From the IMG/VR virus record IMGVR_UViG_3300025530_000023, positions 1 to 41,941 of that record: a stretch of 41,941 bases of DNA. One strand, 5' to 3'. A model generated the notes under the pieces. It saw only the letters and a list, made by a program, of their open reading frames with translations, made no database searches and had not been told where the DNA came from. Positions 8,079-19,633 of the stretch are shown here, in pieces. Within the stretch, counting starts at the first letter, position 1, and each line of letters starts with the position of its first letter. Origin of the DNA: a virus. Its lineage: Duplodnaviria; Caudoviricetes. Made by a program: the position numbers and the translations under genes.

Positions 8079-9272
8079 ATGGCAGGCAAAAATCCGGGTG
8101 AAATTCTCACGGAATCTCTCAACGAATCTCTTCCCAAAATTAGGGCAAGAAAAGGTGAGTTTCAAATGCGAATGAGCACAAGCGTTATCGGCGTCGGCGC
8201 AGGCGGTGGAAATATCGCTCATCTGATGAGCGATTACGACGGATACATGACGGCTGCGTTCAATACAACGGAAGCAGATATGATCGACTTGAACGTGAAG
8301 CACAAAATCGTTATCGATGGGGTGAACGGTTCCGGTAAAGACCGTGCGTTCTCCGCAATGGAGTTCAAACGGTCGTACAAGACGTTCTTCGAACATCCCG
8401 GAATCAAGGAACTCATGAAAAATGATCTGATCATCATTGTAGGTACGGGCGGCGGCGGTACTGGTACGATCATTTCGACTATGGTGGCTGCCTATTTGAA
8501 GTCCGAGTATCCGGACAAGACGATCATTTTGATCGGCATTCTCGGATCTATTAAAGAAGATCTTGTATCTCAGAGAAATATGCTTGAATTTATGTCCGAT
8601 GCTGAAAACAAATTGGAGATTCCCTATCTACTCTTCGATAACAATCGGGCCAAGAACAGAGTAGGGGATGAAGTTTATGAGAAGGTAAATCAAGATATCG
8701 TGGATGCAATCCGCGTCATTTCTAAGGAGTTCTTTATTGAAAACTCTAGGAGCAACATTGACGGCCGTGACTACGCTCGGCTTACTCACTTCAAGGGCCT
8801 GATGTCGGTTGTCACGATTCCGAAGCTTAACATCAGCGTTTCTGAAGAAAATGTAGATCTCGTTGGTCGAATTCAAGCTGCGATCGAGAATTCCACTATC
8901 ATCACTACAGAATCCCCGGATGCATATGGGTTCTTTGTGAACGCAGATCCGGAGGTTTATAACCTTATTGATACCACTTTTGAATCGGTTCAAACATCTA
9001 TTGCTGGTATCCCGACCAGCGGTCTCGTATTCAGACACCTTCAAAACAATTCGGGCGAAGGTCCTGAATTTGCGATGATCATGACCGGCATGGCGGCACC
9101 GATTTCAAGGTTTAAAATGATTGAGCGTCGGATTGCCGAATACGAAAACGTGAAGGAAAAAGAGCGGCTTCCAGAGGTTGAACGTTCGTCCTCCTCTCCG
9201 CTGAAGCTTGCTGGCGACAGCAAATCCGACAAAGGAACTGGCAAAGGGTTCTCGGCGTTGGAACAATTCTGA
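8079..9272 (+). CDS. Tubulin/FtsZ-family GTPase (PhuZ/TubZ-like)
   Basis: GVGAGGGN, GSGKDR, tubulin signature GGGGTGT, NIDGRD (T7-like loop). Alternative start at 8166. Confidence 0.9.
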   Translation: MAGKNPGEILTESLNESLPKIRARKGEFQMRMSTSVIGVGAGGGNIAHLMSDYDGYMTAAFNTTEADMIDLNVKHKIVIDGVNGSGKDRAFSAMEFKRSYKTFFEHPGIKELMKNDLIIIVGTGGGGTGTIISTMVAAYLKSEYPDKTIILIGILGSIKEDLVSQRNMLEFMSDAENKLEIPYLLFDNNRAKNRVGDEVYEKVNQDIVDAIRVISKEFFIENSRSNIDGRDYARLTHFKGLMSVVTIPKLNISVSEENVDLVGRIQAAIENSTIITTESPDAYGFFVNADPEVYNLIDTTFESVQTSIAGIPTSGLVFRHLQNNSGEGPEFAMIMTGMAAPISRFKMIERRIAEYENVKEKERLPEVERSSSSPLKLAGDSKSDKGTGKGFSALEQF

Positions 9273-15306: not shown

Positions 15307-15595
15307 GCAATCAAGTAAACGTTAAAAAACCTACTATTGGAGTCTTGGCTCTAAATGGTGCTATATTTAGAAAAATGGAGAAACTGTAACTCTCCAAGAT
15401 TTCATAATGGACCTTAATTCTATGGGATATGAATTTAATGGCAAGATAATGCAGACACAAATTGATGGAGAACCTATTGTCATTGTTCCAATTCCAGAGT
15501 CGAATGAAGATGGAAATAAAGGTAATGTAACAGCAAACTCTCCAGAGGGTGATCAGCAACAATGCCAAGCTTCAGAAAATCAACAAAACGAATAG
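15303..15595 (+). pseudogene. Frameshifted small gene (15303-15389 plus 15371-15595)
   Basis: ATGA-coupled start; adding one A to the A5 run at 15371-15375 gives a continuous 97-aa ORF. Confidence 0.6.
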
Positions 15596-17808
15596 TTCAG
15601 GAATTGGACAGCGGAAATTATCTTTCCGCTGTCCTCAAACTTCATGATCCTGAGATTGTACTCACGTTACACGAATTAACATTTAAACCTGAAAAATCTT
15701 TAACTGAAGATGAAATTGAAGGCCTTGAAAATATCCTGAAAGCAAGTAAGGCTCTTTATGAGCTTAATCAATATATGAGCGGTATTCTTTACAAATTGAT
15801 TCCAGATGAAATGTATGATAGACTTCTTGAAAAGTATAAAAAGTTGACTGATGGTAAAGAACCTTTTCAGTCTTTCATTCCAACAGGAATGAGAAGTACC
15901 GAACAGGATTTTCCTGAACTCTCTGGTACACTTGATAAAGCTTACACGGTATACGATGTTAACGATAAACCATCTGTAGAAAGATGGTTAAAAAAAATAA
16001 TGAAAGAAACTGGAAAACATACATTGAAACTTATCATAGCTCCGAAATTTGATGGCACTTCAGTTACAATAACGTTTGAAAACAAAAATAATGTTCTTAC
16101 TCCGGTTAAAGCTGTAACTAGAGGAGATTTTGAATCTAATAAAGGTGTAGATCTTTCAAATATTCTTGTGGGTAGAAAACCTCTTGGACTTGGAATGAGA
16201 GAGGGATTATTGGAAAAATGGGCAGATATTATAATTAGAGAAGATAAAAAATGGGTGGATAATTTATCTCTTCCTGATAAAGTAGGGATTCAGTTTGAAG
16301 CTCTTGTTACAGAGTATGGAAGAAATATATTAAGTAAAATTGTAAAATTTGATTATAAAACTAGAAGAGCGGCTATTGCATCTGCAATGAAAAGGATTTC
16401 CAATCCGAAGACACCTAAAGATGAATTGAAAAAAATTAATAAATGTGTTACTCTAATCCCTCTTTTGATGGATGATAAATCAATTGAAGCTTTCAGTAAA
16501 TTAGATAAGAATACTTTTGAGAAAATGTTTATAGCTCTTGAGAATTATTGTGTTTACTATGATGATTCTGGAGAATTTGAATTTTGGTATGACTATCTTT
16601 ATGATAATATAGATGGTTTGCTTAAAGCTATCGATTCTATAGTTAAAGATTATTCTTCTAATAGACATTCTATGTTATATAGCATAGACGGGCTGGTTAT
16701 AACTGTTTTAGAATATGATGCGGTAAAACAACTTGGTAGATCAAATAATAAAAATAAATGGCAAATTGCTTATAAGTTTGATGCAATGGTTCAAAGAACT
16801 AAGATTACTGGTTTAGTTCCTTCTATGGGCAAACAGGGGTTCATTGGAGCCAATATTACATTTGAACCTATTGAGTTCAACGGAGTTCGTTACGATAAAG
16901 CTCCTGTAAATAATATATCAAGATTCAAAGAACTTGATCCTCATGTCGGGGATGAAGTTATTGTATCCTATAACGCAGATGTTATGGGGTATATCTATAA
17001 GGATGAAACTTGTGAGCCTGCAAAAAATGGCGAACCTCTCAAACTTCCAACTCATTGTATTAAATGTGGTTCTGAGCTTATTGTTACTAAAGATATGCTT
17101 AAATGTGTAAATGAAGAATGTCCTGGACATAAAGTCGGAAGACTTTTGGAAGCTATTCGTATATTGGACCTTGATTTCTTTGGAGAAGAAACTGCCAACG
17201 ATTTGGTTGAAATAGCTGGAATTTCGAATGCTATTGAATTTTTGAAGATGACCCATGACGATCTTTCTAAAGTTCTTAAAGGATTAAACCTTGAAAAAGC
17301 TTGGGAAGAATTCCAGAACAAGATTAAAGCTCCTATAAGCTATGCAAAAGTTATAGATCTTCTCAGAATACCAGGTCTTAGAACAAAGACTGCTGAAAAG
17401 ATTCTTGCGGAGATCCCTATAAAAGAATTGAAAGAATTGATGCTTTTTAAACAAAAAGATTCTTTGTATAAAAAACTCAGGGCTGTAAAAGGCATTGATA
17501 AGAAAGCTAAGGATTTTGCAAATGATTTAATCGAAGCATATAATGATTTTTCTGATTTGTGTAAACTACTCAACTGTGAAGAAGAAAAGAAAGATTATGA
17601 TAAAGTAATTCTTGTCTCCGGATTTAGGAGTAATCCGGAGTTTGATAGTATATGTAGAAAGTTAAATTTTAAAGTTATTGAATCAGGAAGTAAATACGAT
17701 TTACTTGTAGTAACTTCTGATAGACTTGATGGAAAGAAAGCAATAAAGGCCCGCAAAAACGGGATTCCGATAATGCTTCTTTCAGAGTTTATCAGAGAAT
17801 ATTCTTGA
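15562..17808 (+). CDS. ligA: NAD-dependent DNA ligase
   Basis: IPDEMYD, KFDG adenylation motif, VTRGD, IDGLVI, IAYKF, C4 zinc finger, HhH, BRCT-like tail. Confidence 0.93.
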   Translation: MPSFRKSTKRIVQELDSGNYLSAVLKLHDPEIVLTLHELTFKPEKSLTEDEIEGLENILKASKALYELNQYMSGILYKLIPDEMYDRLLEKYKKLTDGKEPFQSFIPTGMRSTEQDFPELSGTLDKAYTVYDVNDKPSVERWLKKIMKETGKHTLKLIIAPKFDGTSVTITFENKNNVLTPVKAVTRGDFESNKGVDLSNILVGRKPLGLGMREGLLEKWADIIIREDKKWVDNLSLPDKVGIQFEALVTEYGRNILSKIVKFDYKTRRAAIASAMKRISNPKTPKDELKKINKCVTLIPLLMDDKSIEAFSKLDKNTFEKMFIALENYCVYYDDSGEFEFWYDYLYDNIDGLLKAIDSIVKDYSSNRHSMLYSIDGLVITVLEYDAVKQLGRSNNKNKWQIAYKFDAMVQRTKITGLVPSMGKQGFIGANITFEPIEFNGVRYDKAPVNNISRFKELDPHVGDEVIVSYNADVMGYIYKDETCEPAKNGEPLKLPTHCIKCGSELIVTKDMLKCVNEECPGHKVGRLLEAIRILDLDFFGEETANDLVEIAGISNAIEFLKMTHDDLSKVLKGLNLEKAWEEFQNKIKAPISYAKVIDLLRIPGLRTKTAEKILAEIPIKELKELMLFKQKDSLYKKLRAVKGIDKKAKDFANDLIEAYNDFSDLCKLLNCEEEKKDYDKVILVSGFRSNPEFDSICRKLNFKVIESGSKYDLLVVTSDRLDGKKAIKARKNGIPIMLLSEFIREYS

Positions 17809-17814
17809 TAAATA

Positions 17815-17846
17815 GAGCCGGAGAGAAATCTCTCTGGCTATTTTTT
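17815..17846 (+). terminator. Intrinsic terminator
   Basis: AGCCGGAGAGA-AA-TCTCTCTGGCT followed by ATTTTTT. Confidence 0.85.
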
Positions 17847-17989
17847 CAAAGGTTTATTCTCTTAAAATAGTTGATGACGAATTGGATTTTCTGTAAAATA
17901 ATAAAAATATTATTTTAAAATAAATTAAACACCTGGTAAATATAATTGTTAATATCAGAACCGTTTCAGGTAATTTTTGGAAATGTATA

Positions 17990-18001
17990 AACAGTATATC
18001 G
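17990..18001 (+). promoter_or_regulatory. Late-type promoter AACA-N6-CG
   Basis: ATGTATAAACA context is identical to the promoter at 40343-40353; predicted +1 is G18001. Confidence 0.55.
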
Positions 18002-18290
18002 GGAATGAATTTGTGAGAGAGTCAGATTAAGCAAAAACAAAATGAAACCACCGGGTCTGGCCCGTAGATCTCTTTGAAAAACTAAAAACTTCAAATTATC
18101 CCAACGATGATAGGGGTAATCGGCGATATTCCTCGGATTTTTCTGCCTGGGTTGGTCTACTGTTTGAGGTCAACCGTCGCGGAAAGTGAAGAGGTCCTTG
18201 CTGAGGTTTTTAGAAAGGGAACTATAGGGCTAGTAGGTGGAAAATAATTTTGGGAAAAGTTAATGACTCAATCTCACAGTTCATATCCTC
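18001..18290 (+). ncRNA. Putative structured rod-like ncRNA (6S-like architecture), family not recognised
   Basis: Nested long-range complementarity between the 5' and 3' halves; no ORF; flanked by a promoter motif and a terminator. Confidence 0.65.
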
Positions 18291-18302
18291 AATATAAAAA
18301 AT

Positions 18303-18344
18303 GAGCCAGAGGGAGTCACATCCCTCTGGCTTGTTGTTTTTTTT
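18303..18344 (+). terminator. Intrinsic terminator
   Basis: GAGCCAGAGGGA..TCCCTCTGGCTT followed by GTTGTTTTTTTTT. Confidence 0.85.
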
Positions 18345-18360
18345 GATTAATATGCAAATA

Positions 18361-18375
18361 TATATTATTAATCAG
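18361..18375 (+). promoter_or_regulatory. Early-type promoter TATATTAT-N6-G
   Basis: Exact motif. Confidence 0.7.
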
Positions 18376-18400: not shown

Positions 18401-18836
18401 ATGTCTCTCAATTCTGTTATAAATTTCGATAAAATTTCTAATGAAGCATCTAAACAATTGTTTTTGTGCGAAAATGATGGAGAACCTCCAAAAAAATACA
18501 CTTATTGAAGCTAATGCTGAATATATTGAAGAAAATAAATGAAATAAATATTTCTTATCCACATTACTACATTATCTCGAAAAGGACAGATATGACAAAA
18601 AATCTAAAAGATGGATCAAAGTTAAAAATAAAGATGAAGATAAAATTATTATAGATAAAAAGAGCGCAGCTATGTTTGTTTCTATTCATGCTTTAACATT
18701 ACTATGTATTCTTAACATTATTTCAAGGGAAAATGAAGACTCTCTGGAAGAAATTACTTTTGAGAGGAATGAAGAAACTTACTGTTTAAAGAAAGTAGAT
18801 AATACGTGGTTACTCGGATTCACTTTGAGTAACTAA
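18401..18836 (+). pseudogene. Degraded paralogue of 18929..19633
   Basis: RBS AAGGAGG plus ATG; frameshift at A7 (18490-96); TGA at 18540; downstream frame NKYFLSTLLH..D.YD....W..SAAMFVSIH aligns to the next gene. Confidence 0.8.
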
Positions 18837-18839
18837 TTA

Positions 18840-18890
18840 TATATTATTATTGTGTATATGACACATTATTAGCATATGTAATGATGTGTC
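18840..18890 (+). promoter_or_regulatory. Early-type promoter plus 5' hairpin
   Basis: TATATTAT-N6-G(18854); GACACATTATTA..TAATGATGTGTC. Confidence 0.7.
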
Positions 18891-18928: not shown

Positions 18929-19633
18929 ATGGCGAAAAAACTCATTGAAATCACGAACTCTGTGTCTTCGAAGGCGTTCCATTGCGAGCGCAACATCAAC
19001 GGCGAAGCTACGAAGGCCGAAATTGACATGCCGATCCAGGCCATCATCGACACCGGCATCTCCAACGCAATTTCCCGCACCTTGTATCTGAAGATGAACC
19101 AGGAACCGGCTGAAGAGGTCCAGCTGGTTGTTGGTCCGTTCACCTACGGCGTCGTTGCGCGACGGTCGGGCGAATCCCTGTCGCTGAACCCGACGTTCAC
19201 GCTGACGAACGAGAAGAAGCTTCTCAGCGAACTGGACAACTTCCAGGAGAAGCTGTACAACAATGTATCGCTCATCGAATCGATCGCAACCACTATCGAC
19301 GACAAAGTCTTCCTGGACACCGTCATCCATTGCTGCAAGCTGGATGAATACGATGTTGCGGAAGGCGAATGGGTCGAGAAGAAGACGGATGCTGACCGTG
19401 GGGTTGAGCTCGACGAAATGTCGGCGCAGCTGTTCGTTGCGATTCACGTCGCGGCAATCCTTCACGTTCTGGCGAACAGCAAATCGCCGGAAGAAGTCGT
19501 GAAGTACGAAGTTCCCGGCGAGGGAACATACACGATTGAACTCAAGAAGGACAAGTGGGAAATCGGTTTTGTTCCTTCGAAGGAGTTCAAACAAACGATC
19601 AAGAACGACCGCCTCATCGAAGCTCTCGTCTGA
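18929..19633 (+). CDS. Highly expressed protein, possibly tandem HU/IHF-like DNA-binding
   Basis: Strong RBS, GC-rich biased codons; EVPGEGTYTI..FVPSKEFKQTIK resembles the HU C-terminal pattern. Confidence 0.6.
   Translation: MAKKLIEITNSVSSKAFHCERNINGEATKAEIDMPIQAIIDTGISNAISRTLYLKMNQEPAEEVQLVVGPFTYGVVARRSGESLSLNPTFTLTNEKKLLSELDNFQEKLYNNVSLIESIATTIDDKVFLDTVIHCCKLDEYDVAEGEWVEKKTDADRGVELDEMSAQLFVAIHVAAILHVLANSKSPEEVVKYEVPGEGTYTIELKKDKWEIGFVPSKEFKQTIKNDRLIEALV

Follow-up and report, generated by a model that had tools for sequence, protein, structure and literature searches.

A clade-restricted structured RNA family of AR9-like jumbo phages with a possible 6S-like action

Downstream of the NAD-dependent DNA ligase gene, the jumbo phage sequence analyzed here encodes a stand-alone, structured RNA, predicted to be 290 nt long, that represents a real, uncatalogued and clade-restricted family of phage RNAs. 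The sequence (hereafter the window) comprises the 41,941 nt of IMG/VR record IMGVR_UViG_3300025530_000023. An earlier note, made from the letters alone, had proposed a rod-shaped non-coding RNA with a central A-rich bubble, perhaps a decoy for the host or phage RNA polymerase. The structured, stand-alone RNA is borne out by covariation, by a conserved promoter and terminator, by G.U pairs on the plus strand and by the absence of an Rfam family. As to function, the reading preferred here is that of a new RNA family that is not a member of the 6S family and would work like 6S RNA on the host sigma-A RNA polymerase, to which, weighing all the analyses, a probability of roughly 0.45 is given.

Genomic context and transcription signals

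The window covers part of the genome of a jumbo phage of the AR9/PBS1 kind. Genes assigned with Pfam and PHROG include those for split RNA polymerase beta subunits, gyrase, a PhuZ-like tubulin (8079-9272, + strand), NAD ligase, capsid, terminase and sheath, and the nvRNAP subunit is 37% identical to that of AR9, its best match among cultured phages. The RNA unit lies between the ligase gene (15562-17808) and an ORF of 234 aa, all on the + strand, and it is the next element after the ligase in all seven clade members found. A terminator-like hairpin after the ligase transcript (about 17816-17846) parts the RNA from upstream transcription in the window genome. An AR9-type late promoter, AACA-N6-(C)G, occupies 17990-18001 and sets the +1 at G18001; AACA-N6-YR(+1) precedes 7/7 units, in the form AACA-N6-T(A/G) in the four close relatives. 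The RNA body, as delimited by fold and covariation, runs from 18001 to 18290, with a predicted primary transcript to about 18344, the end of an intrinsic terminator (18300-18344; stem 18300-18335 with a T-run). A 3' hairpin is present in each of the seven units, the four close relatives included, and in one of these (L009) it has no T-run directly after it. The downstream gene has its own promoter at 18356-18375, an exact match to the AR9 early type (AAATATATATTAT-N6-G), and this motif is found 3' of the RNA in all five close homologs and in neither of two distant units. Since this promoter serves the next gene, the RNA is not the leader of that gene, and the two terminators and two promoters together make it a separate unit, as had been claimed from the late +1, the terminator and the want of an ORF. 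The longest ORF within the unit has 46 codons, and a small-ORF reading was rejected; the claimed GC enrichment also stands, at 42% for the unit versus 36% for the window.

The early and late promoter consensus motifs are those described for AR9 (PMC5312081, in part). The late motif is enriched about twofold upstream of ORFs in four complete relatives, with 35/154 observed and 15.6 expected in the closest of them (G002), and 40/217 (21.4 expected), 38/186 (15.5) and 32/224 (17.0) in the other three; in AR9 itself it precedes 74/226 ORFs versus 23.6 expected.

Predicted fold and anatomy

The stretch 17983-18344 folds at -136.6 kcal/mol, with a z-score of -9.2 (0/100 shuffles as good) and of -5.3 for the reverse strand. 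With the terminator excluded (18001-18290) the z-score is -7.3 under RNA parameters and -4.75 under DNA parameters, and in each case 0/200 shuffles are as good. In all five copies of the RNA it is the + strand that has the better fold (z -7.3, -6.6, -6.3, -2.3 and -2.6, against -3.5, -4.3, -5.2, -1.1 and -1.9 for the - strand in the same order). Pair changes on one side only go to G.U on the + strand, which upholds the earlier argument from G.U pairs for an RNA of this strand.

The helices named in the earlier note are present, from the closing stem through CCACC/GGTGG and the middle stems to two apical hairpins. The closing stem joins the 5' and 3' ends of the RNA (18001-18030 with 18260-18290), the first paired base being +1 to +3 in 7/7 units; it is about 30 nt long and is paired in each homolog's own fold, with a variable sequence (1/31 and 0/31 columns invariant). 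It is followed by a weak A/U zone, the candidate bubble, with its 5' side at 18031-18047 and its 3' side at 18241-18259 (5/16 and 4/19 columns invariant). The 5' side carries an invariant CAA (18032-18034), the C of which is a putative template for the start of a pRNA, and the A-rich start of the 3' side may be a -10-like strand, a likeness that draws on the role of A-11 in the -10 element. This zone had been described as an unpaired bubble. Its weakness holds, but in the predicted fold of the window it is not fully open, since a 6-bp A/U helix lies in its middle (7x7 loop, 6 bp, 4x6 loop).

The apical arm begins with helices at 18048-18075, paired with 18214-18240 and holding a conserved 4x2 loop (C-GNRU-C / G-UA-G), and continues with a six-base bulge, GAAAAN (18076-18081), in which GAAAA is invariant and which is flanked by invariant UUU/AAA and CU/AG pairs. 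A nested pairing of this bulge with an invariant UUUUC was considered and rejected, as it costs 21.6 kcal/mol. The conserved apical domain (18082-18213) had been drawn as a multiloop with hairpins, and a junction is indeed found, but it is three-way, with one short hairpin (18095-18120) and one arm of about 80 nt (18122-18202) that has further internal loops. This long arm includes an invariant GGA/GAA loop (18135-18138 / 18187-18190) and a tip hairpin (18150-18175). GGA/GAA loops of this kind would form three sheared G.A pairs, the triple-GA motif. All five close copies share the three-way junction and have lengths of 287-298 nt, and conservation peaks in the apical domain (61/151 columns invariant at +70 to +220), not around the bubble.

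Homologs and covariation

Homologs were sought via the neighboring proteins, which led to the seven clade members. A homologous unit is found directly after the ligase in four relatives besides the window (L006, identical to L007, and L008, L009 and L010), and the five RNAs are 61-74% identical. In a core of 166 alignment columns, 96.8% of cells pair and 17/50 pairs are altered on both sides, compared with a mean of 6.4 in shuffled controls (0/500 reach 17) and 2-8 in slid controls; as the sequences are only five and are related, such controls do not amount to probabilities, the margin nonetheless being wide. Across the wider structure, 30/76 pairs are altered on both sides. The closing stem is outside these counts, as it was aligned poorly by MAFFT. 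Covariation across related phages thus bears out the fold that had been read from a single sequence.

Further searches left the homolog total at five distinct sequences. No blastn hit in phage and plasmid records exceeded 12% coverage. A three-motif pattern search returned seven viral loci (six known, one by chance) and 62 metagenomic loci (five copies of known sequences, 57 by chance), and in a second pattern scan, with 25 of its 64 parts covered, two of 120 loci matched the covariance model R1, both of them known. Within its scope of 158 core positions, R1 matched only its training sequences among 80 loci around AR9-like nvRNAP genes and among 33 records searched out of 42. The other AR9-like records, 31 in number and with AR9 among them, had no match, and a single weak, partial match of 25 bits came from 151 Bacillota genomes.

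Two distant units also stand after the ligase (L096:6652-6931 and L095:5765-6040), each with a late promoter, a closing stem that starts from the +1 and a terminator. Neither matches R1 or shows sequence similarity to the family or to the other (z about 1), and their fold z-scores are -2.85 (L096) and -0.37 (L095). L096 is a predicted rod that branches at a three-way junction; in L095, the fold of which is not significant, there are box C/D-like words (AUGAUGA, CUGA). Judged by sequence they are positional analogues only, and with no similarity and weak folds they were left out of all covariation counts. In a distant AR9-like phage (L141), the 450 nt that follow the ligase stop contain no obvious gene start and are richer in GC toward their middle; R1 did not match them. 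Elsewhere in the relatives, strongly folding windows of 270-290 nt occur in ORF-free gaps at L202:14323-14772 (G001), L214:926-1788 (G004) and L230:453-928 (G003), with energies of -113, -97 and -94 kcal/mol, and these are possible further phage ncRNAs.

Transcription

Transcription of the unit is predicted from its promoter, its terminator and one low-depth RNA contig. The contig, of 229 nt at depth 3.6, lies wholly inside the RNA (18049-18277) and comes from one of three RNA runs; because strand, ends and level are not readable from it, and RNA libraries of this kind may contain DNA, it lends transcription weak support. When its four transitions are set on the fold, one retains pairing as G.U, two fall at unpaired positions and one disrupts a U-A pair. 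Runs X1 and X3 gave no contig on the RNA, though X1 has half of the words of the wider region, and this is not proof of absence.

Comparison with 6S RNA

The phage RNA is not a member of the 6S family. The 6S model RF00013 matched 0/5 records at E ≤ 10, while 39 of 41 control Bacillota genomes matched at E ≤ 1e-5, and a profile built from 30 Bacillota 6S RNAs gave no match. The 6S motifs GGGAG, CACCCACCUG and GGUUC are absent, as is the 3' bubble hairpin; the RNA is 290 nt, compared with about 180 (180-200) nt for 6S, and it ends in a three-way junction in place of the unbranched arm and simple terminal loop of 6S. Its closing stem is shorter, with the CAA at +31 to +35 and not at +40 to +45, and it is phage-encoded, behind a phage late promoter.

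What it shares with RNAs of the 6S-1 type is a closing stem of the 5' and 3' ends, a bulged apical arm and a weak zone of 15-16 nt that starts with CAA. In 5/5 close homologs the first covarying apical helix follows the invariant CAA at a distance of 15-16 nt, and L095 and L096 have no CAA at this place. CAA opens the bubble in 28/30 Bacillota 6S RNAs, mostly as CCAAC, and in all 24 of the 30 in which both anchors were found it stands 15-16 nt from GGGAG; the match amounts to three bases noticed post hoc in five copies of shared ancestry, and CAA falls in such a zone by chance in 8-21% of shuffles per sequence. Since predicted folds pair much of the bubble, it looked at first as if the bubble was not conserved, a reading that was changed by comparing pairing registers and opening costs. 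The predicted pairs of the weak zone differ in register between homologs, which share none: each diagonal has at most one column that can pair in all five. To open 14 nt of the weak zone costs 2.1-5.1 kcal/mol, in the upper part of the range for 28 6S RNAs (0-5.1), whereas in four of the five RNAs the other zones of 14 nt need 7.4-23.7 kcal/mol; the exception is L008, which is weak throughout its base, so that parts of its closing stem open as easily. In predicted ensembles the open run on the 5' side is 4-10 nt, versus a 6S median of 15 (range 4-28), by which measure the window and three relatives rank among the bottom 13-20% of 6S RNAs, six of 30 true 6S RNAs having 7 nt or fewer. The length, starting CAA and low predicted opening cost support a 6S-like geometry of the weak zone, and as short, post hoc features of related sequences they raise the odds of a likeness to 6S and do not settle it.

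In B. subtilis, 6S-1 RNA starts its pRNA at C40 and the polymerase needs to initiate with GTP (PMC8876501, PMC3753640, each in part), and the invariant C of the CAA fits this. Cut down to its bubble and short arms, 6S-1 remains functional (PMC8876501, in part), so that a different apical end may be tolerable. A phage 6S-like RNA was not found in the literature searched; the supplements of PMC10690425 could list the element as an unnamed candidate, and neither the core motif nor the contig names of the relatives occurred in the parts of them that were searched.

Comparison with other RNAs

A scan of the window with Rfam 15 gave five matches at E ≤ 1, all below the gathering score and none on the RNA body, and there was no match on the units in L092, L095 and L096; the RNA thus has no Rfam family. 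ARAGORN found 0 tRNA or tmRNA genes in the window, and the large SRP model (RF01854) matched 0/5 records at E ≤ 10, a cut-off passed by 3/14 controls, in line with the lack of tRNA, tmRNA and SRP signatures remarked on earlier. In large SRP RNA a long rod ends in a junction, the S domain, and the phage RNA is alike in its long rod, its junction with a short and a long hairpin and its similar length; it differs in having no Alu domain, no conserved tip tetraloop and no model score. The pRNA of phi29 is a rod with a three-way junction and complementary hand loops. For the phage RNA a loop-loop pairing of 3-4 bp can be drawn in 5/5 copies, as it can in 63-93% of shuffles, and loop kissing of the phi29 pRNA type was rejected. 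An antisense role was also rejected, the best matches to other sites shown for three of the phages' own genomes being 11-16 nt (best E 0.046).

Actinobacterial Ms1 RNA resembles the phage RNA in being about 300 nt long and a rod with a central bubble, and as it binds the RNA polymerase core (PMC9130861, in part) it is a precedent for an RNA polymerase-binding RNA of this size. Ms1 has extra hairpins at its 5' and 3' ends and not an apical junction, and its model (RF02566) matched 0/5 records at E ≤ 10, a cut-off that no control genome passed either. Structured ncRNAs of a jumbo phage are also known from Grad-seq of phiKZ, a fragment of one of them being reported from the RNA polymerase-associated and 30S fractions; these are about 100 and 180 nt, the larger is a fragment of a 5' UTR, and no 6S-like role is assigned to them (PMC8545117, in part).

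Host and phage gene content

The closest complete relative, G002, encodes SpoIIID (L197:2713-2985), S-layer-homology (SLH) proteins, ThyX (L192:14772-15989), thymidylate kinase and dUTPase, along with a polyphosphate kinase (L197:15446-17584), and its NrdIEF proteins are about 49-50% identical to those of Bacillus/Paenibacillus records. Based on SpoIIID, the SLH proteins and the Bacillus/Paenibacillus-like NrdE, the host is likely a spore-forming member of the Bacillota. The presence of ThyX, thymidylate kinase and dUTPase suggests that this AR9-like phage has thymine DNA and yet retains the AACA late promoter. No Ro60, reverse transcriptase, Hfq, CsrA, Ffh, RnpA, SmpB or sigma family was found among the 158 of its 188 ORFs that were scanned, the other 30 being for the most part short overlapping frames or genes with an ortholog in the window. 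Thirty-two G002 ORFs are common to G001, G003 and G004 and absent from four outgroup phages, and nearly all of these are unannotated.

A model of function and its alternatives

If the RNA acts like 6S on the host enzyme, it would be a late product of the phage nvRNAP, with a closing stem that would shield it and make it stable. The weak A/U zone would then open into a bubble of 15-16 nt that host sigma-A RNA polymerase binds as an open promoter, and capture of the host holoenzyme, which these phages would not need, would damp host transcription of defense, stress and sporulation functions. A G-initiated product RNA may be made from the invariant C, and the domain with the three-way junction could add affinity or bind a second protein. 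AR9 infects without host RNA polymerase, and host mRNA falls during infection (PMC5312081, in part). Loss of 6S-1 brings sporulation forward (PMC3753640, in part), and as SpoIIID is encoded by these phages, they might plausibly gain from a shift in when the host sporulates. For host shut-off, however, expression late in infection is a poorer match than early expression would be. In a fuller and more tentative version, the RNA would be a two-domain analogue of 6S in which the bubble traps sigma-A RNA polymerase and the junction domain locks the complex or brings in a second factor, so that a phage independent of that polymerase silences host transcription and steers sporulation by means of an RNA and not a protein. 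The host RNA polymerase is a known target of phage proteins, and a phage-encoded promoter-mimic RNA was not found described in the literature searched; an RNA decoy, if true, would add a new way in which phages take over their hosts, and as a natural 6S analogue with an extra domain it would show what the polymerase needs in an RNA promoter mimic. Even without a decoy role, this is an uncatalogued family of 290-nt RNAs that covary clearly, have defined ends and share invariant motifs in their loops. The phage is uncultured, yet in vitro synthesis of the RNA and tests with B. subtilis enzymes are feasible.

The 6S model leaves the apical domain unexplained, which supports the leading alternative, doubtful on balance, that the RNA is a scaffold or decoy for a protein other than RNA polymerase, such as a host RNA-sensing defense protein, a nuclease or a ribosome-associated factor titrated late. 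Its working end would be apical (the A-rich bulge, the junction and the GGA/GAA loop), where invariant residues cluster in unpaired motifs, and the basal rod would be a stabilizing stalk; the RNA is also clade-restricted, as seen from the 31 other AR9-like records, and fast-diverging, as counter-defense genes often are. Against it, the scanned G002 ORFs offer no candidate partner, and the fixed weak zone starting with CAA is left unexplained.

Far less probable is an architectural role with the adjoining 234-aa protein, in which the two would condense phage DNA as naRNA4 is reported to do with HU (PMC4550694). The AlphaFold model of the protein (18929-19633, + strand; pLDDT 90) matches single-chain IHF with Z 6.3 (rmsd 3.8, 125 aligned) and HU/IHF/Hbb with Z 4.1-4.7, and a paralog is found directly 3' of the RNA in several relatives. 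However, Z under 8 may reflect a common arrangement, the protein is acidic (pI 4.8), and the paralog is broken in the window and missing from L006 and L009. In many distant relatives an ORF lies so near the end of the ligase gene that the RNA would not fit between them, and in at least several of these the ORF resembles the 234-aa family by eye.

A decoy for the phage's own nvRNAP, acting as late feedback, had been argued from the AACA in the bubble and ranks slightly lower again. The nvRNAP of AR9 reads 3'-UUGU-5' on the template strand, with uracils in single-stranded template (PMC5449584, in part), and UGUU is found in the tip loop of the window and in the weak zone of L008 and L009. The AACA argument fails, because AACA is present in one of five copies and is the wrong strand for a polymerase that reads its complement; UGUU has no fixed place either, being absent in L006, paired in L010 and elsewhere at differing positions, and if G002 has thymine DNA the reading of uracils may not apply. 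Less probable still is an SRP-like, phi29 pRNA-like or antisense RNA, for which the long rod ending in a three-way junction is a likeness to the SRP S domain and to pRNA; the absence of RF01854 matches, a loop-loop pairing within the range of shuffles, AR9 packaging its DNA without a match to the model, and the shortness of the best other-site matches shown all speak against it. A DNA-level structure or chance fold with no functional RNA, which would suit the single contig of unreadable strand and ends, is the least probable of all in view of the two-sided pair changes, the + strand bias and the conserved promoter and terminator.

The genes adjoining the RNA

The 234-aa protein has a predicted tandem HU/IHF-like fold and also resembles microtubule-doublet chains (best Z 8.4), which we take to be CCDC81-type HU domains. 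No match was found at E ≤ 0.001 with Pfam, PDB sequences, the Atlas or Foldseek, and a match to a CshA repeat in relatives is below threshold. Including itself, it has 18 homologs of 53-100% identity, and its GC-rich coding, like that of the major capsid gene, suggests high expression. Between the RNA and this gene lies a broken paralog (18401-18836, + strand), with a frameshift and an in-frame stop, behind the early promoter and 32% identical to the 234-aa gene over 135 aligned positions; intact paralogs occupy this site in L008, L010, L095 and L096. Just past the early promoter of the 234-aa gene is an inverted repeat, GACACAT...ATGTGTC (18847-18886, + strand), that is conserved in L006, L008, L009 and L010 and is possibly an operator or a leader hairpin.
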